Assembly (NCBI GenBank): GCA_964016885.1
Contig: OZ024753.1
Location: 2,790,001 to 2,854,000, forward strand
DNA from: Eledone cirrhosa
Lineage: Eukaryota
Direction: 5' to 3'
Length of the DNA stretch: 64,000 bases
Shown here: piece by piece, positions 10,573 through 63,647 of the stretch
Layout of the letters: each line of letters opens with the position of its first letter
Position numbering within the stretch: position 1 is the stretch's first letter
Made by a program: the position numbers and the translations under genes
The notes under the pieces: model-generated
What the model was told of the DNA's origin: nothing
What the model saw: the letters and a program-made list of their open reading frames with translations, nothing else
The model's database searches: none

Positions 10573-11116
10573 CCCTTGCAAGCAGGGAAAAGCGGACGTA
10601 ATATGATGATATATATATATATATATGTATATATGTATATATATATATGTATAGAGAGAGAGAGAGAGGTTTATCCGAGAGAGGGAGGGACATTATGTGA
10701 AAGTAAGTGTTTATATACATGTGCATGCAGTAATTGGGAAGGAATTCTTCACCTTTTCTTTGACTTGTTGCAAATTACAACATGGTGGTTAGTTAATGGA
10801 ATCAATCAAACACGTTTCATCTACAATTATAGAAATGTCTACCATTTCACTAAATTCTATTATTTAATCAACACAGCACCATCTATCTTTCTCTCCACCT
10901 CTCTCATTCTCATATATGTATATATATATAGTAATAATAATAAATTTGAAGACTAAAATCCAAAGAGGGCTCGATAAGGATAAATATATATCAAATATAT
11001 AAGAACACACATATACTTACACACATCATATGTAAATATGCATAAACATATATATGTGTATATAAATCAATGTTAAAACAGATGTTATGATTACATAATC
11101 ATATTTATCATATAAC

Positions 11117-12190
11117 ACACTTTGGTGACACCAGCGTACAGCTGTTATGCAATCATTACATTGGCAACAAACGCTATCATTAGAGTATTTACATGTAGTC
11201 ATGTAAAACTCTTTGGGGCATGTTCAAACTCAGGTCATTGTATAATTATTTATAATATTTCTGAAGTTTTACAATATGTAATAATTCTATGTTATACACA
11301 ATATTTTTCCTCTTTAACTACATTGAAATCATCATCATCATCATCGTTTAACGTCCATCTTCCACGCTTGCATGGGTTTGGACAGGAATTTTCCCACTTG
11401 AGGCAAGATTGGTTGACTTGCTCGTATAGGACTGTCTGGAGGGTTTTCTACGGCTGGATGCCCTTCCTAACACCAACCACATTTACAGTGTGGACTGGGA
11501 GGTTTTTACCGTGTTACCTACACGGTCACATTACAGAGTGGACTGTGTGTTTATTTTTGTCATGACACCTACATACGCATTAGTTGAATAAGATGTGTTT
11601 AAACATATGTAAAAATATTAAATTGTTTAAGAAATCTATTCTTTTATCGGAATTTGTTATATATATTTGTTATATACATATACATATATATATATATAAA
11701 TATATATAAGCTTATTTGTAAAACTGTTATATATTGTATTTTGTCTGATGAAGGCATACCATAATTTAATTTGGTATCCCTGAAATATGTATAATGAAAT
11801 AAATATGGTTTTATAAATATAGTTTCCATTTATTAATATCGTATATCTACTCCAAATACTTGTCGCCACCAAACACTTTGGTGACACCAGCGTACAGCTG
11901 TTATGCAATCATTACATTGGCAACAAACACTGGCATGATATCATTAGAGTATTTACATGTAGTCATATGATGGTACAACTTCTCTTTGGGGAATGTTGAA
12001 TCTCAGGTCATTGTATAATCATTTATAATATTTCTGAAGTTTTACAATTCTATGTTATACACAATATTTTTCCTCTTTAACTATATTGAAATAACATAAG
12101 CATTAGTTGAATAAGATGTGTTGAATCATATGTAAAGATATTAAATTGCTTAAGAAATCTATTCTGTTATCTGTATTTGTTATATATATA
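11117..12190 (+). mobile_element. Partial head-to-tail tandem of a hammerhead-bearing element separated by (TA)n
   Basis: 11117-~11665 and 11873-~12190 are diverged copies (acactttggtgacaccagcgtacagc...). Copy 2 is preceded by the 11731 hammerhead; copy 1 is interrupted by an RTE-tail repeat at about 11331-11570. Confidence 0.6.
11731..11806 (+). ncRNA. Minimal type I hammerhead ribozyme, intact core
   Basis: Stem I atattgtattttgt/atgaaataaatat; CTGATGA 11745-11751; stem II aggcatacca/tggtatccct; GAAA 11782-11785; stem III T-ATGT-A; AUA cleavage triplet ending at 11793. Confidence 0.75.
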
Positions 12191-27864: not shown

Positions 27865-28106
27865 ACTTTCGGAAACATTTTTTCACGCTCAGAGTTGCTG
27901 AAGCATGGAACAAACTACCTGCATCAGTTGTTAGCTGTCGAGACACTGCATCCTTTAAGGCCTCCATACTTCCCGAGATCCGCCAACACTACAGCTAACA
28001 CATACACACATGTACTTCCCTGACATTTGTGTATTATTCTATGTACTATATTGACGAGTTGTAGTGCACCTGAGCACTTTACACAATAATTTCATTATTA
28101 TTATTA
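27865..28106 (+). mobile_element. CR1-like LINE 3' end
   Basis: RKHFFTLRVAEAWNKLPASVVSCRDTASFKASIL, then 3' UTR gtgcacctgagcactttacacaataat and (ATT)n tail. Confidence 0.75.
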
Positions 28107-28717
28107 TATTGTATCATTTAACCCATACAGTTCCATTTATAATTTATACTTTATCAAACTTTCAAAGTGAATACCTACAGGAACGTGTAATTTCAGTTTA
28201 CATGCACAAACTCAATCGCTTCTTCTTCTACTCAGGAACATTATCCTAGTTCAACCTCAAGTTATAGTCACTATGTACGTTGTTACACTGTTAGATTTAT
28301 ATATAGACTGAATCAGAATGGGAGATAAAAATAGAGAATGGGTGAGAAATAACAAAATTATTCAAGACATATACAGGAACATAGGTTATAAAGTTACCAC
28401 CACCCGTTTTGTCACCCCTACCCTCCTTAATATATCTTTCAGGTAAGTGTACGAAAAGAAAGTCTAGCTAACCAACTGATTACTTTTTCAGTGTCTATAT
28501 CAATATAGTGTCTATATCATTAGCAAAGAAACTGCTATCAGTATACGTTAATTAGAAACCCCAATATACTTTTGATCACCTTTCCAACACAACTACGACG
28601 ACGACTAAAAAAAGTTGAATATTTTCCAAGTCATTGCTATTGATATCCAAACATAAACACAGCTATATATAATATATACACACAGCACAGAAATATATTT
28701 ATATATACTCACAACTA

Positions 28718-30479: not shown

Positions 30480-30831
30480 TATGACGGATGACAGCTGCAT
30501 AAAAGGTGCAGAGCACTATAAGTCGATGGAAGCCGCGGAGTGGGGGGACCCAAGAAGACCTGGGATGAGGTGATAAAAGCCGACCTTACCCAATTGTACC
30601 TCTCAAAGGCGATGACACATGATGGTGACCTCTGGCATCACGCAGTAATACAGAAGACCCGACTTCCCACGGGTGCAAGCTGAAGCTGAAGCATATAGAC
30701 AATATGCCCCACCACCTCCCACTGCAAAGTGGTCGTGGAGGTGCCATAGCAAAAAAGCACCCAGTCCACACTGTAAAACGGATGTGTAGGCGCCACGGAA
30801 AAAAAGCACCCAGCACTCACTGTAAATGAGT
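30480..30831 (+). mobile_element. RTE LINE 3' fragment with repeated 3' UTR units
   Basis: GSRGVGGPKKTWDEVIKADL-like frame followed by aaaaagcacccagtccacactgtaaa units. Confidence 0.7.
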
Positions 30832-32281
30832 ATTCTCATAAATTGCTACAAAGGTAAAGGGGATGCTCTGGAGAGGAGCAATTATAGGGGTATAAAACTG
30901 ATGGATCAGGTTATGAAAGTAGCAGAAAAGATATTAGCACAACTAATTAGATAAAGGGTCAAACTAGATGAGATGCAGTCTGGTTTTGTGCCTGGGAAAA
31001 GTACAACAGATGCCCTCTTCTTGGTGAGACAATTACAAGAGAGGTTCTTAGCTTTTGTTGACTTAGAGAAGGCCTTTGATAGGGTACCCGGTCTGTCATC
31101 TGGTGGTCCCTAAGGAAACTAGGTGTTGAGGACAGTGCAAACTTTGTACAGAGGTGCTGTCAGTAAAGTCAGGGTAGGAATGGAGTTTAGTGAGGAATTC
31201 CAGATACAAGTAGGAGTACATCAAGGTTCGGTCGTCAGCCCGCTCTTGTTCATTATAGTCCTCCAAGCCATAACAAAGGAGTTTAAGACTTGCTGTCCAT
31301 GGGAACTTCTCTATGCTGATGATCTGGTTCTTATAGCAGAATCAGTAGAGGAGCTAGAGAATAAATTCTGGCTATGGAAACAACAGTTGGAAGCAAGAGG
31401 ACTGAGAGTGAACCTAGCTAAGACAAAAGTGTTGATGAGTAGAAAAGAGGACAAAATTCTGATTCCATCAGGGAAATGGCCATGTTCGATATGCAGAAAA
31501 GGAACTGGGTACACAAGAGATGTAATGGGATAGCAGGCAAACTAACAGGTAGGGAGAAATACGTATGCAGTAAATGTACAAGGAAATTAGACAGTAAAAG
31601 CTGCACTGATAGACACATTTTTCAAATGCAGGCGGGTGCTATAGAAGTGGTTGATAGCTTCCGGTACCTAGGAGATCAGATTAGCATGGGAGGGGGGGGG
31701 GGGGGGGGGTCCGAGGCCATAGTATCTAGAATAAGGGTCGGTTGGAAGATGTTTAGGGTGCTGCTTCCTCTGCTGACGCAGAAGGGTTTCTCCCTGCGTA
31801 CGAAAGGCCGGTTGTATGATGCCTGTGTGAGGAGCGCAATGCTGCATGGTAGTGAGACTTGGGCAGCAACTGCAGAGGATATGTGATGTGGCTGGAGAGA
31901 AATGAGGCAAGCATGCTCCGTTGGATGTGCAATGTCAATGTGCGTGAACGACCCAGCATGGATGTGTTGAAAGAGAAACTGTGTCTGAGAGGGATAGAAT
32001 GTAGTGTGCGAGAGAGGAGACTACGGTGGTATGGACATGTGATGTGCATGGAGGATGACCGATGGGTGAAGAAGTGCCAGGAAATGCCAGTTGAAGGAAG
32101 ATGTGGTAGAGGTAGACCACGAAAAACATGGGCGGAGGTGGTGAGAACAGACCTCAGATTGCTGAAGCTCACGGTGGAGATGACGAAGGACCGTGACAAG
32201 TGGAGAGATGCTGTGCTGAATAAAACCCATCCTACCCTTGCAAGCAGGGAAAAGCGAACGTAAAATGATGATCATGATGAT
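30832..32281 (+). mobile_element. 5'-truncated, inactivated RTE-clade LINE (RT, C-terminal region, (ATG)n tail)
   Basis: CYKGKGDALERSNYRGIKL, FVDLEKAFDRVP, QGSVVSPLLF, LLYADDLVL, FRYLG, RRLRWYGHV, GRGRPRKTW; several stops and frameshifts. Confidence 0.92.
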
Positions 32282-35189: not shown

Positions 35190-36183
35190 TATGAACAGCA
35201 TTGTTGCATGGTAGTGAGACCTGGGTACTATTCACAGAGGACCTGAGAAGATTGGAAAGCAATGAAGCATGCATGCTCTGATGGATGTATAATAGTAATA
35301 TACTAAGAGGGCAATTAGGCATAAGAAGGACCAGATGCAGTATACTAGAGAAGAGATTGTATTGGTAATGTCATGTGATGCATATGAAGGATGACAGTTA
35401 TATAAGGTGCAGGGTGATAACAATTGATGGAAGCTATGGAGTAGGAAGACCCAGGAAGAACTGGGACGAGGTGATAAAAGCTGACCTTATACAATTGCAC
35501 CTCTGAAAGACAAGGACACAGGATCGAGATTTTTGGCGTTATGCAGTAATACAGAAGACACATCTTCCCATATACATGGACTCAAACACACTACTTGTAG
35601 GCACCTCTTAAACACTATATTCTCTTCCATACACCTCCACACCCCTACATACACCCTCCCACTACAGTCCACACCACCCTTGCACTCAAAAGTTATGTTG
35701 ATATCACAAAAAGGCATCCAGCCCGCTCTGTAAAGTGATCATGTAGGTGTCAATAAAAACCACCCAGTCTATACTGTAAAGTGGTCATGTAGGTGTCACA
35801 ACAAAAGGAACACAGTCCACACTGTACAGTGATCATATAGGTGTCATGACAAAAAGCACCCAGTCCACACTGTAAAGTGATCATATAAGTATCACAACAA
35901 AGAGTGCCCAGTCCTCACTATAAAGTGGGCATATAGGTGTCATGAAACAAAGCACCCAGTCCACACTGTAAAGTGGTCATGTAGGTGTCACAAAAAAAAG
36001 CATCCAGCACATACTGTAAATGTGGTTGGCGTTAGGAAGGGCATCCAGCTGGAAAAACCTAGCCAGAAACAGTTCTATATGAGAAGGTCACAGTCACCTG
36101 ACCCAACAAGCTTCAAATGGGACAACCCGTCTTCCCCATGCCAGCATGGAAAATGAACGTTCAACAATGATGATGGCAATGAT
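35190..36183 (+). mobile_element. Degenerate RTE 3' region with ~6 tandem ~48-bp UTR units and (ATG)n tail
   Basis: ALLHGSETW..RLESNEACML..GRPRKNWDEVIKADL relics; units ctgtaaagtggtcatgtaggtgtcac..aaaagcacccagtccaca at about 35729-36020. Confidence 0.75.
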
Positions 36184-36464: not shown

Positions 36465-36808
36465 TTTATATATATCCATGCTAGCGTGGAAGATAGACAT
36501 TAAACGATGATGATGATATATACATCACACATATATATATACATACATACACATATATAGATAGATATATACATATACACATACATATATACACATACAT
36601 CTACACACACACATATATATATACATATACACATATATATATACATATACACATATATATATATACATATACACATATATATTACATACCCATATATATT
36701 ACATATTTATATATATATATATATATATATATCATCATCATCATTTTACGCCCACTTTTCCCTGCTTGCAAGGGTGGGACGATATATATATATTATATAT
36801 ATATATAT

Positions 36809-37348
36809 ATAAAATATTAAACAAATAATGAACAAACAATTCCTTATATTAAATAAAAAAAGTTCACTATTTAACGATCGTTTCTAGGGCATATATGTGT
36901 TATAATTGGTATGCATATTTAACAGATCTATGTACAAAATTATACAAAATTATACAAATTATCAAGATTAAATATACATACCTAACTCATATATACGCCG
37001 TCTTCAGAAATATTTCTGAAGACGGCGTATATATGAGTTAGGTATGTATATTTAATCTTGATAATTTGTATAATTTTGTATAATTTTGTACATAGATCTG
37101 TTAAATATGCATACCAATTATAACACATATATGCCCTAGAAACGATCGTTAAATAGTGAACTTTTTTTATTTAATATAAGGAATTGTTTGTTCATTATTT
37201 GTTTAATATTTTATCTTGACTCTGTATACCGTTTATCTTTCACCGAAAGTGGATTTTCATTACATCTCTTCTTTCCATGATATCCGAAATACATTGAGTT
37301 CTTCATACGGATTGGACACTACCGTAAACTCTTGGTAGATTTATCTAC
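36809..37348 (+). mobile_element. (TA)n-flanked PLE-like non-coding element with a perfect 406-bp palindrome (36809-37214)
   Basis: 203-bp arms, no spacer, centre 37011/37012; unique ~135-bp extension on the right; (TA)n on both sides; contains a hammerhead motif. Confidence 0.65.
37011..37155 (+). ncRNA. Hammerhead ribozyme with ~100-nt loop II; exact mirror copy on minus strand at 36868-37012
   Basis: TATTT-CTGAAGA(37016-37022)-c-ggcgtatat...atatatgcc-cta-GAAA(37139-37142)-C-GATC-G-TT-AAATA; palindromic GATC tetraloop III; the base of stem II is imperfect. Confidence 0.6.
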
Positions 37349-37927
37349 ATATATATATATATATGGATATTATATATATAGGGAGAGAGAGAAAGAGAGA
37401 AAGAGAGAAAGGATGGACCATGTATACTCCTATTCTTAATGAAAATATATTTTATATATTATTTTTATCTTTGTACGAAAGTTATTTTAGGTGTATAACA
37501 CCCCAGGGAGAACATAGAACATGAATTCATTAATTAATTTTTATATCAGAATATATTTCTAGCTTTTGTCTAAAATAACTATGGGGTTATTGGGGTTAGA
37601 AAACAATTGCTGCTTGTTTTAAAAGAGAGCTTGAAATATTCCCATATAGAATTAATTAATTCATATAATGTGTAATGTAATTTTCCACATGCAATAATTG
37701 GCAAATCTACATGACCAGATGGATATTAACAAATACAACAGTCTAATCGAGTGGATGTACATGGTTCTAACTGTGCTGAAGTGGTATGGGACCTTACTGA
37801 GTTAAAGGCCTTATTTATTGAGTTGTCAGCAGCCCAGCATCTTCTCTCTAGGGTTTTATACCCATACAATAAATATATTGTTACATAGATTTATATAAAT
37901 ATATGTGTATATATATATATATATATA

Positions 37928-38110
37928 ATGAAGGAAATGTGGTAAGGAACCAGGTGGACCATAACGCACCAAAGTACTCAATACTTAGGGTAGTAGAGTG
38001 GCTAATAGGAACAAGTAAGACCCCGACGGCTGAGCTCAAGCCGTTTCGACCGCTAATTCAGAATTAGCCGTCGAAACGGCTTGAGCTCAGCCGTCGGGGT
38101 CTTACTTGTT

Positions 38111-38115
<5 letters not shown>
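37928..38115 (-). mobile_element. (TA)n-flanked element with a 111-bp fold-back (38005-38115) and the 3' half of a hammerhead
   Basis: 55-bp arms, 1-nt loop at 38060, one C.C mismatch; carries GAAAC-GGCT-TGAGCTC-AGCC-GTC-GGGGT (stem III, GUC site, stem I'). Confidence 0.6.
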
Positions 38116-38145
<30 letters not shown>

Positions 38146-38151
<6 letters not shown>

Positions 38152-38604
38152 ATGCTTTGGGAGGGTCATGTTGCCAATAAGAAACACACGCACCAGTTGC
38201 TTTCACTTCAATTTATTATAAATTAAATTTATAAATTTCCGGTTGGTTCGTTGGTTCCACAACCAGACGATTGTTCATACCCCATCTTGTTTTTGCACAA
38301 GATGGGGTAGGACAGAACAAAGGAGAGAAACAAAGAAAAGAATCCCCACTCACTGAAGAGGTCAAAGAATGTGAGACGAAAAAACTTTGACAATATATGA
38401 ACAATCGTCTGGTTGTGGAACCAACGAACCAACCGGAAATTTATAAATTCCTAAATTTATAAATTTAATTTATAATAAATTGAAGTGAAAGCAACTGGTG
38501 CGTGTGTTTCTTATTGGCAACATGACCCTCCCAAAGCATAACAATATCGGTTTCAACACACGTTTTCAGATAAAGAATCTTGCTAAACAAATTGAGAAAC
38601 GAAA
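38146..38604 (+). mobile_element. (TA)n-flanked element with ~135-bp inverted arms and a ~115-bp spacer
   Basis: Arms about 38146-38279 and 38395-38547, with a short insertion in the right arm; the spacer has the hairpin taccccatcttgt/acaagatggggta and a CTGAAGA motif; unique 3' extension. Confidence 0.6.
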
Positions 38605-38619
38605 TATATATATATATAT

Positions 38620-38935
38620 ATAATATAAGATCAAAAGATGGTTAAAAGAGTTCCATGTATTTTATTATGCGCATTTCAAAAACAAATATCATCATGAGAT
38701 GACATTTGCGTTTTTGTCAGATAAAATAGGGAGACATGATATGAAGGTTAAAAAGCACTTGTGAATAGTGCAGTTTTAAATCAACATATTGAAAATGTGC
38801 GTAATAAAATACATGGAACTCTTTTAACCATCTTTTGATCTTATATTATTTATACTCCAGTCCCACAAACTGTAGAGTGCTACTTATCCGATATCTGCAT
38901 TGCTTTATTGTACTACAATAAAACTCACCTCCTAC
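38620..38935. mobile_element. (TA)n-flanked element with ~60-bp inverted arms and a hammerhead
   Basis: Arms 38620-38679 and 38789-38849; hammerhead at 38658-38728 on the minus strand; unique right extension. Confidence 0.6.
38658..38728 (-). ncRNA. Minimal type I hammerhead ribozyme with a G8>A core change
   Basis: Minus strand: tattttat-CTGACAA-aaacgcaaatgtcatc(tcat)gatgatatttgttttt-GAAA-T-GCGC-A-TA-ataaaata. 8-bp stem I, long stem II, palindromic GCGC loop. Confidence 0.65.
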
Positions 38936-39020
38936 ATATATATATATATAAGTTAACGTGATATCGTTTAAGGTAATCCAACTAGCTGGCCACGTTATTC
39001 TTCACTCTTTTACTATATAC

Positions 39021-39053
<33 letters not shown>

Positions 39054-39275
39054 GTAATAATAATAAATTTGAAGACTAAAATCCAAAGAGGGCTCGATAA
39101 GGATAAATATATATCAAATATATAAGAACCGTAGAGCAAAAATTTATTAAAATAACAGATTAAAGAATCGCTGCTTTCACTCTTAATGGGATCTTCTGAA
39201 ACTATTTCAGAAGATCCTGTTAAGGGTGAAAGCAGCGATTCTTTGCTTAAACTTGAATCTGTTATTTTAATAAAT
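39054..39275 (-). mobile_element. (TA)n-flanked element with imperfect fold-back 39142-39275
   Basis: Arms centred on 39203; the terminal 76 bp (39054-39129) are identical to 10931-11006, which also abuts (TA)n. Confidence 0.55.
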
Positions 39276-39324
39276 ATATATATTTATATATCATCATCAT
39301 CATCGTTTTTCTCTTTGTTTTCAT

Positions 39325-52210: not shown

Positions 52211-52217
52211 TGCTTAC

Positions 52218-52431
52218 CTTTCACTGTTAGATGTACCAAACGAAAGAGTTTATTAGAGGAACTAACTTGACACTCGTACACTCCTGAACGGGAGATTTGA
52301 ACGTCTTTAATGAGCAAATTCCACTCGTGTGTTTGGTTGTTATGAACCACAGAGATATTGGCGTCGTCTATAAACGTGTATGTACCAACTGTAAGTGGTT
52401 CTTGCTTTGGATACTTTTTCAACCAAGAAAC
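52218..52431 (-). CDS. Internal exon encoding most of an Ig V-type domain of a Dpr/Zig-8-like neuronal cell-surface protein
   Basis: Pyrimidine-rich tract and TGTTAACAG acceptor before 52431; AAG|GTAAGC donor after 52218; 214 nt, phase 0 to phase 1. Translation VSWLKKYPKQEPLTVGTYTFIDDANISVVHNNQTHEWNLLIKDVQISRSGVYECQVSSSNKLFRLVHLTVK has the Dpr Ig1 pattern VSW..LTVG.YT..D..EW.L.I....SGVYECQVS. The upstream exon with the first Cys was not found. Confidence 0.9.
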
Positions 52432-61753: not shown

Positions 61754-63647
61754 ATGGAGGCCTTAAAGGATGCAGTGTCTCGACAGCTAACAACTGATGC
61801 AGGTAGTTTGTTCCATGGAGGCCTTAAAGGATGCAGTGTCTTGACAGCTAACAACTGATGCAGGTAGTTTGTTCCATGGAGGCCTTAAAGGATGCAGTGT
61901 CTTGACAGCTAACAACTGATGCAGGTAGTTTGTTCCATGGAGGCCTTAAAGGATGCAGTGTCTTGACAGCTAACAACTGATGCAGGTAGTTTGTTCCATG
62001 GAGGCCTTAAAGGATGCAGTGTCTTGACAGCTAACAACTGATGCAGGTAGTTTGTTCCATGGAGGCCTTAAAGGATGCAGTGTCTTGACAGCTAACAACT
62101 GATGCAGGTAGTTTGTTCCATGGAGGCCTTAAAGGATGCAGTGTCTTGACAGCTAACAACTGATGCAGGTAGTTTGTTCCATGGAGGCCTTAAAGGATGC
62201 AGTGTCTTGACAGCTAACAACTGATGCAGGTAGTTTGTTCCATGGAGGCCTTAAAGGATGCAGTGTCTTGACAGCTAACAACTGATGCAGGTAGTTTGTT
62301 CCATGGAGGCCTTAAAGGATGCAGTGTCTTGACAGCTAACAACTGATGCAGGTAGTTTGTTCCATGGAGGCCTTAAAGGATGCAGTGTCTTGACAGCTAA
62401 CAACTGATGCAGGTAGTTTGTTCCATGGAGGCCTTAAAGGATGCAGTGTCTTGACAGCTAACAACTGATGCAGGTAGTTTGTTCCATGGAGGCCTTAAAG
62501 GATGCAGTGTCTTGACAGCTAACAACTGATGCAGGTAGTTTGTTCCATGGAGGCCTTAAAGGATGCAGTGTCTTGACAGCTAACAACTGATGCAGGTAGT
62601 TTGTTCCATGGAGGCCTTAAAGGATGCAGTGTCTTGACAGCTAACAACTGATGCAGGTAGTTTGTTCCATGGAGGCCTTAAAGGATGCAGTGTCTTGACA
62701 GCTAACAACTGATGCAGGTAGTTTGTTCCATGGAGGCCTTAAAGGATGCAGTGTCTTGACAGCTAACAACTGATGCAGGTAGTTTGTTCCATGGAGGCCT
62801 TAAAGGATGCAGTGTCTTGACAGCTAACAACTGATGCAGGTAGTTTGTTCCATGGAGGCCTTAAAGGATGCAGTGTCTTGACAGCTAACAACTGATGCAG
62901 GTAATTTGTTCCATGGAGGCCTTAAAGGATGCAGTGTCTTGACAGCTAACAACTGATGCAGGTAGTTTGTTCCATGGAGGCCTTAAAGGATGCAGTGTCT
63001 CGACAGCTAACAACTGATGCAGGTAGTTTGTTCCATGGAGGCCTTAAAGGATGCAGTGTCTCGACAGCTAACAACTGATGCAGGTAGTTTGTTCCATGGA
63101 GGCCTTAAAGGATGCAGTGTCTTGACAGCTAACAACTGATGCAGGTAGTTTGTTCCATGGAGGCCTTAAAGGATGCAGTGTCTCGACAGCTAACAACTGA
63201 TGCAGGTAGTTTGTTCCATGGAGGCCTTAAAGGATGCAGTATCTTGGCAGCTAACAACTGATGCAGGTAGTTTGTTCCATGGAGGCCTTAAAGGATGCAG
63301 TGTCTTGACAGCTAACAACTGATGCAGGTAGTTTGTTCCATGGAGGCCTTAAAGGATGCAGTGTCTTGACAGCTAACAACTGATGCAGGTAGTTTGTTCC
63401 ATGGAGGCCTTAAAGGATGCAGTGTCTTGACAGCTAACAACTGATGCAGGTAGTTTGTTCCATGGAGGCCTTAAAGGATGCAGTGTCTTGACAGCTAACA
63501 ACTGATGCAGGTAGTTTGTTCCATGGAGGCCTTAAAGGATGCAGTATCTTGACAGCTAACAACTGATGCAGGTAATTTGTTCCATGGAGGCCTTAAAGGA
63601 TGCAGTGTCTCGACAGCTAACAACTGATGCAGGTAGTTTGTTCCATG
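61754..63647. repeat. 61-bp minisatellite, ~31 near-identical copies, inside a CR1-like LINE 3' end (whole element about 61597-63656, minus strand)
   Basis: Unit atggaggccttaaaggatgcagtgtcttgacagctaacaactgatgcaggtagtttgttcc shifts 1 nt per 60-nt line; a single-copy equivalent lies at about 27905-27966. Confidence 0.95.

Follow-up and report, generated by a model that had tools for sequence, protein, structure and literature searches.

What is a perfect 406-bp palindrome that places a hammerhead motif on each strand: a ribozyme governed by its own antisense copy, or a trace of the way in which a mobile element entered the genome? The locus lies in a window of 64 kb (the whole stretch of DNA that was analysed), which is AT-rich, animal-type DNA crowded with microsatellites and short repeats and may resemble octopus DNA. 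The unit that contains the palindrome is most probably a young, 5′-truncated insertion of a high-copy Penelope-like retroelement (PLE) family in (TA)n, with the ribozyme on both strands and the hairpin lock as by-products.

A perfect palindrome inside a longer unit

Exact extension from 37011|37012 gave arms of 203 nt each (36809-37214) with 0 mismatches and a spacer of 0, and alignment agreed. The longest arm among 200 base shuffles of the palindrome's 406 nt was 10. The perfect, spacerless 406-bp palindrome with 203-bp arms claimed in the initial annotation is therefore real as a sequence, 203/203 positions being identical by exact extension. The unit exceeds the palindrome: the right copy extends ~134 nt further, to ~37348, and (TA)n abuts both unit ends. 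Outside the arms the sequence is (TA)n and a short interspersed repeat on the left and the tail on the right, and the flanks are unrelated to each other. The parts of the unit are as follows.

36782-36811, unstranded: (TA)n microsatellite, left half of the insertion target; no target-site duplication is readable
36809-37011, minus strand: left arm, an inverted copy of 37012-37214 without the tail, 203/203 identical
37012-37214, plus strand: right arm, a 5′-truncated pLTR-like end-piece of a high-copy repeat family (run coverage, alignment)
37215-37348, plus strand: one-sided extension (the tail) of ~134 nt, part of the same family (coverage in runs)
37349-37380, unstranded: (TA)n microsatellite, right half of the insertion target, where family coverage ends

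No tandem or second copy of the unit was found within the 64-kb window. A 43-codon open frame (37207-37335) overlaps the tail, although the tail's coding frame is itself uncertain, and a protein search found no candidate for a longer protein to which it might belong. Its only representative protein match, P0001 (E 2e-7), is a translated 56-residue tandem repeat without a reverse transcriptase (RT) or endonuclease family, and was rejected as spurious.

The hammerhead motif and its predicted fold

A type I hammerhead pattern occurs on both strands, with the plus-strand copy at 37016 and its mirror on the minus strand at 37007, in agreement with the earlier statement that each strand has the ribozyme behind its own antisense copy. 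Its components are these.

37011-37155, plus strand: type I hammerhead motif, a putative ribozyme (pattern, fold)
36868-37012, minus strand: mirror copy of the motif (pattern match)
37011-37015 with 37151-37155, plus strand: stem I of 5 bp, which uses T37011
37016-37022, plus strand: core CTGAAGA
37023-37138, plus strand: stem II region of 116 nt, an unusually long hairpin (fold)
37139-37142, plus strand: GAAA
37142-37149, plus strand: palindromic stem III of 2 bp, in the palindromic stretch ACGATCGT
37149-37150, plus strand: UH of a GUU triplet, with the predicted cut after 37150

The required core elements CUGANGA, GAAA and UH are all present (37016-37022, 37139-37142 and 37149-37150), as are the three helices around the core: the 5-bp stem I, the long stem II and the 2-bp stem III with its palindromic loop. 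H17 varies from U to A within the repeat family, as judged by run reads. The centre of the palindrome had been placed at the exact 5′ edge of the remaining stem I. It lies one base inside that stem, since T37011, the last base of the left arm, takes part in the pairing; the idea of a remaining stem holds in that the edge is a truncation point, reads of other copies lengthening stem I to 10 pairs.

A descriptor derived from the motif matched none of 20,000 shuffles of 37011-37348 that preserved dinucleotides and nothing in 30 shuffled windows, against 2 real sites, a generous control because the descriptor was fitted after the motif had been seen. No Rfam hammerhead reached the gathering score in the 64-kb window (0 Rfam hits of any model), and the hammerhead model was absent among the 54 matches at E<=10 over 36700-38700. 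The ribozyme call consequently depends on motif and fold, and a helix II of 116 nt would defeat the Rfam hammerhead models. Those 54 matches, all below gathering, were mostly to microRNA-precursor models that fit any long hairpin; a microRNA precursor was considered as the identity of the palindrome and rejected.

The G10.1-C11.1 pair that closes helix II, called highly conserved in PLE hammerheads in the available text of PMC4209133, is absent in the fold register used here, in which C37023 lies opposite A37138. Pairing of stem II outward from the core runs C.A, then G.U, G-C and C.C, and neither 37023 nor 37138 is among the 40 family variants listed of 49. The fold of 37012-37170 is stable (z = -4.88), but the lowest-energy fold of a single copy pairs the core (-40.3 kcal/mol versus -35.0 kcal/mol with the hammerhead forced, a cost of 5.3). 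Twelve of the 18 family variants checked fall on paired positions, of which 10 keep or restore the pair and 2 break one in stem II; this lends weak support to stem II, as many are easy G.U changes. In the right copy's predicted fold, 37191-37200 pairs with the 3′ strand of stem I, a possible competitor within the family.

For the full palindrome the hairpin is predicted at -331 kcal/mol, compared with -158 kcal/mol when the hammerhead is forced, a cost of ~174. The proposal that the hairpin sequesters the ribozyme is thus right in that the hairpin wins the folding, but it took for granted an active ribozyme, and the monomer fold that this requires is not the lowest in energy. Minimal PLE hammerheads of the dimer type did not cleave as single motifs in published tests, according to the accessible part of PMC4209133, and the hammerhead of an anole element needed its protein to cleave (PMC11167929). 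Because the motif here is truncated, dimer-type and lacks G10.1-C11.1, the hairpin lock is probably a by-product; on these structural models it probably locks a motif that is already poor as a predicted ribozyme.

A solo hammerhead-like motif elsewhere in the window (11737-11801, plus strand) has a CTGATGA core, a 30-nt stem II region and an 8-bp stem I; no inverted copy of it was found.

One member of an abundant repeat family

Four of 19 public sequencing runs were aligned to 36980-37890 at 85% likeness: X1 and X4 (contigs of organism A), X5 (contigs of organism B) and X17 (raw RAD reads bearing the species label of X1). Runs X6-X16 (share <0.2), X2, X3, X18 and X19 were left out. The aligned stretch takes in only 32 nt of the left arm and does not reach the left junction at 36809. 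X1 is possibly the assembly's own sample, or is without this locus, and so provides no independent support. Matching records numbered 831 in X1, 149 in X4, 18 in X5 and 3865 raw reads in X17, where RAD reads count few loci many times, so that X17 numbers are not copy frequencies.

Positions 37011-37351 are covered in all four runs, and coverage ends at the right (TA)n. Such coverage in four runs and two organisms identifies 37011-37350 as a high-copy repeat family, represented by hundreds of differing records, although depth is not copy number. The initial annotation described the symmetry of the palindrome correctly but missed that the unit is one copy of this family. The family contigs on the 37011-37350 repeat are only 50-170 nt long, and 278 of the 3865 X17 reads are at least 99% like this copy. 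No read in the four runs spans the palindrome locus plus its flanks, and the flank 37412-37890 is almost uncovered; with that flank nearly empty, the reads do not confirm this individual locus.

Within the tail, the segment 37290-37323 is common to other subfamilies that differ upstream, with peak tail depth and loose ends in X1, X5 and X17. It is a candidate protein-binding or RT-start signal.

A local nest of inverted repeats with the same layout

An inverted-repeat scan of the whole 64 kb (outside microsatellites, score of at least 18, spacer up to 150) returned 5 non-microsatellite inverted repeats, all within 36809-39275. The palindrome's four neighbours lie within 2.5 kb and are unrelated to it in sequence, but have the same layout of arms, one-sided extension and (TA)n at both ends.

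37930-38115, minus strand: sister insertion B (other family); arms 38005-38059 and 38061-38115, 54/55 identical, 1-nt spacer, 75-nt extension
38144-38605, plus strand: sister insertion C; arms 136/136 plus one 16-nt indel, 116-nt spacer, 58-nt one-sided extension
38615-38935, minus strand: sister insertion D; arms 59/62 identical, 116-nt spacer, 81-nt one-sided extension
39054-39275, unstranded: sister insertion E; arms 57/60 plus one 11-nt indel, 3-nt spacer, ~88-nt one-sided extension

Given neighbours with arms of this kind, perfect or near-perfect arms are not unique to the palindrome here. By eye, B keeps just the 3′ half of a hammerhead-like motif. The spacer of C contains a CTGAAGA motif, and its extension lies within an open frame that has an ATG start and continues into (TA)n. 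At 38720 on the minus strand, D carries a hammerhead motif whose core has one change and whose stem I measures 8 bp; its stem III is palindromic. E has a degenerate core-like motif beside its centre (by eye, weak).

The 2.5 kb from 36782 to 39283 hold all 5 inverted repeats but 6 of the 31 (TA)n loci, a nest of five unrelated families; each insertion may split and renew the TA target. The centre of B (38005-38115) falls at the would-be stem II, with one C.C mismatch nearby. The turnaround there may have been a natural hairpin, and this would be a point in favour of self-priming in that neighbour. A 95-nt sequence found at 10912-11006 and 39035-39129 (98% identical) corresponds to the outer end of E, and the 10912-11006 copy also lies beside (TA)n.

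The turnaround zone, the termini and the age of the copy

Where other copies of the family turn back on themselves bears on how the mirror arose. An opposite-strand joint at 37011 is present in 6 X17 reads (2 starts, 56 letters on the shorter side). Among the X17 reads that reach 36996, 16 of 18 show a family variant in mirrored form, and even the cleanest read departs from this copy in 3 further places; these reads therefore derive from other copies or loci. One X5 contig has a perfect palindrome centre 2 nt further upstream, and in one X1 contig, of depth 3, the turn comes ~17 nt upstream and leaves a loop of 5 nt. At both perfect centres (37011|37012 and that of the X5 contig) the family sequence has a self-complementary dinucleotide. 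X17 reads that fold back at 37011 are outnumbered, with 6 explicit and up to 18, versus 286 that run on upstream without a mirror. The consensus of these 286 reads, joined by eye to the window, gives a stem I of 10/10 pairs, all Watson-Crick with the majority base at 37156. Reads that continue upstream with a full stem I show the palindrome centre to be a truncation point inside stem I, the mirror being formed anew in different copies.

At the other end, family records run into TA repeats near 37348 in X1, X4 and X5. At least 2 pieces end exactly at 37214 (2 of the 24 listed, with 983 further pieces), and 72 X17 reads (1 start, one RAD locus) join 37216 to another place on the opposite strand. 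From these sequences 37214-37216, to which the outer end of the left arm also corresponds, looks like a second family terminus, on evidence that is thin but consistent.

The base at 37169 is near-private: 1702 of 1711 X17 reads differ from it, as does all X4 and X5 depth, and yet it is present in both arms, which implies one template or homogenized arms. The tail has a near-private base of its own at 37287, from which 1140 of 1153 X17 reads differ. That perfect arms mean either a recent origin or arm-to-arm conversion, as had been suggested, is borne out as an alternative of exactly this form. Because the arms of D and E drift apart, a young copy of a rare source is the simplest reading, the others being later fold-back or conversion.

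In the best surviving of the rival accounts, which is nonetheless improbable, a solo copy came first and the left arm was added later by fold-back repair or a replication template switch, or the arms have been kept identical by arm-to-arm conversion. This would explain why near-private 37169 is in both arms while the single-copy tail carries its own near-private 37287; if the tail change post-dates insertion, ~3 arm differences would be expected, a rough figure taken from one change. Against this account, the left arm ends at an apparent family terminus, flush with (TA)n, and turns at or near the base at which other copies turn. Conversion is not strong here, as the drift between the arms of D (59/62) and E (57/60) indicates. 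The young copy of a rare source is retained below.

Identity of the unit

Several traits of PLEs are present: a hammerhead motif, 5′ truncation with a head-to-head inverted copy, (TA)n on both sides and a multi-copy family. According to the accessible text of PMC8557442 and PMC8969392, PLE insertions are 5′-truncated; many have a truncated copy in inverted orientation at the 5′ end together with a one-sided tail, and several clades have a (TA)n bias. Pfam searches of 150 of the 163 longer frames of the window, together with the search of the tail frame, found no PLE RT or GIY-YIG ORF in or next to the unit; the Pfam matches were confined to an Ig domain, a weakly matching DUF and a separate remnant of an RT. 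As no such ORF is linked to the unit we can only infer that the family belongs to the PLEs, which is likely.

The closest parallels concern anatomy. In the parts of Craig et al. 2021 (PMC8557442) that were available, PLE insertions resemble the unit in their inverted truncated 5′ copy, one-end extension and (TA)n target, and in having no readable target-site duplication. They differ in that the unit is a 340-nt end-piece without an ORF, and in tail length: ~134 nt here and 58-88 nt in the four neighbours, versus the 30-40 bp reported for PLE tails, so that the tail here is three to four times as long. Neither a description of the 37011-37350 family nor PLE tails >100 nt were found in the literature consulted, mostly non-subscription and without supplements. 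Naiads lack canonical hammerheads, as far as the available portion of PMC8557442 goes, which makes a Naiad identity unlikely.

Inverted copies that meet head to head at a palindromic junction have been described as products of PLE insertion (PMC3846280, available in part), a precedent overlooked when the palindrome was first reported. In Adineta vaga, the accessible sections of Arkhipova et al. 2013 (PMC3846280) state that palindromes are common at head-to-head Penelope junctions and put them down to self-priming. As in the unit, the pLTRs are inverted head to head, the junction is palindromic and the inverted copy is the shorter one. In contrast, the A. vaga palindromes given there are 18 and 38 bp long, lie at pLTR 5′ ends and belong to elements with ORFs, whereas the unit is a 406-bp palindrome plus a tail.

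Its hammerhead shares with the metazoan PLE hammerheads in the available text of Cervera and de la Pena 2014 (PMC4209133) an intact core, a palindromic dimer-type helix III, an enlarged helix II and a short helix I. It departs from them in the 116-nt helix II, in C.A for G10.1-C11.1 and in a family helix I of ~10 bp, although the supplements of that paper may list such forms. The same text reports dual hammerheads on opposite strands, 100-700 bp apart, in Schistosoma.

A ready-made non-autonomous palindrome, either a MITE-like or fold-back DNA element or a non-LTR retrozyme monomer, is slightly less probable than a later-formed arm. High copy number, the lack of an ORF and the same centre in other copies would suit such an element, and retrozymes are described as PLE derivatives in the accessible part of bioRxiv 10.64898/2026.07.22.740005, where non-LTR retrozymes, like the unit, are short non-coding hammerhead repeats akin to PLE pLTRs. 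A MITE is hard to reconcile with outer ends that are not inverted repeats of each other (the 134-nt extension is on one side), with centres that vary among copies and with the 286 X17 reads that continue upstream without a mirror. The retrozymes in that text are tandem and head to tail, unlike the head-to-head unit, which has no tandem monomer in the window.

Illumina libraries can generate fold-back chimeras, and an assembly or read artefact of this type would account for perfect arms at a locus that no record spans together with its flanks and whose flank is almost uncovered in the four runs. We consider an artefact very improbable. The flanks beyond the arms are unmirrored and unrelated, which is not what a simple fold-back chimera would yield; the same junction recurs in a second organism's contigs and in raw reads from a different sample; and neighbours with diverged arms share the layout. 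The view taken at the outset, that a fold-back chimera is unlikely, is sustained by the unmirrored flanks and by that junction in the other sample's raw reads.

A proposed mechanism of insertion

How PLEs form inverted copies is stated to be open both in the available text of PMC8557442 and in PMC11167929. Seen as a young PLE insertion, the unit has an anatomy, from left to right, of (TA)n, the inverted copy, the direct copy that carries the hammerhead motif, an extension of 134 nt on this side only and again (TA)n. We propose that the element's endonuclease would cut the (TA)n target, and that uncleaved element RNA would be reverse-transcribed from the tail end back through the ribozyme until copying stopped inside stem I, just upstream of the ribozyme core. 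The mirror half would arise in the same event: two cDNAs could be primed from both sides of the break, at internal starts at ~37348 and ~37214, reach the same stop in stem I and be joined head to head through their self-complementary 2-nt end. Unequal stops of the two cDNAs would give the 116-nt spacers of C and D.

Parts of this scheme have a counterpart in Poseidon PAc of the green anole, whose purified protein cleaves the two strands of the target and extends each of them (Frangieh et al. 2024, PMC11167929). In that system two internal RT start sites bound the tail and uncleaved RNA is the template. The likeness to the unit lies in the AT-rich target, the two internal RT starts and an uncleaved hammerhead kept in insertions. 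PMC11167929 describes no inverted copies, and it is by extension from it that we infer the two-cDNA model of the palindrome.

On balance we lean slightly towards joining of two cDNAs over hairpin self-priming of a single cDNA. Self-priming fits the centre equally well, but must also account for the 37214 end. Tentatively, and with doubt outweighing belief, the family may have a fixed RNA 5′ end (or RT stop) in stem I and two RT starts ~134 nt apart, its insertions recording two-primer joining.

Two other origins were rejected. Hammerhead cleavage as the source of the 5′ end would make copies begin at 37151, not 37011. Two independent family copies lying head to head do not fit identical arms, when only 278 of the 3865 X17 reads are at least 99% like this copy.

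If the two-primer reading is true, the centres and arm ends of many copies could separate two-cDNA joining from self-priming. For the study of PLE inversion this abundant family, which has two termini, a long tail and a turnaround confined to a tight zone, offers good material. The single locus is of little weight: it is a repeat insertion, whose two-stranded ribozyme and antisense lock follow from the copying of the element. What remains of note is modest: the length of the tail, the narrowness of the turnaround zone and the nesting of five such insertions in one place. As PLE stumps routinely give striking ribozyme-bearing palindromes, caution is called for in genome scans.

Host context and other features of the window

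An Ig V-set-like exon at 52213-52431 (minus strand) has a polypyrimidine tract, an AG acceptor and a GT donor, with a Pfam E of 5e-5 that is below the curated cut-off. No further exons of this gene were found in the window, and the exon probably belongs to a gene with very long introns. The insertion cluster may lie in a later intron of this gene, in which case a perfect duplex of 200 bp would be part of the pre-mRNA. PMC5625713 describes palindromic repeats as strong targets of A-to-I editing and reports that Penelope is heavily edited in a lizard. The locus, if transcribed, would give not a working ribozyme but perfect double-stranded RNA, on which editing or small-RNA pathways would be likely to act, and intronic PLE insertions of this sort may feed those pathways. 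Were the two-primer reading true, such insertions could supply this animal group with perfect double-stranded RNA from introns on a large scale.

A selected host device, whether a ribozyme repressed by an antisense arm of its own or a cruciform with a function, is scarcely credible. A hairpin predicted to sequester the core and a site possibly in an intron of an Ig-domain gene would accord with it. Against it, stem I is half the family's, the dimer-type motif lacks the G-C pair next to its core, this apparently young copy is one among many, and there is no conserved flank in the second organism (where a gap proves nothing).

The probable PLE insertion lies among repeats of other kinds. A broken non-LTR reverse transcriptase remnant (31123-32260, plus strand; Pfam RVT_1, E 6e-14) is unlinked to the palindrome. 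Tandem units of 48-49 nt occur within a common short interspersed repeat, at 35706-36020 and 30720-30813. A 61-nt satellite (61754-63647) comprises 31 nearly identical copies, and its monomer is also present inside a dispersed repeat at 27895-28107.
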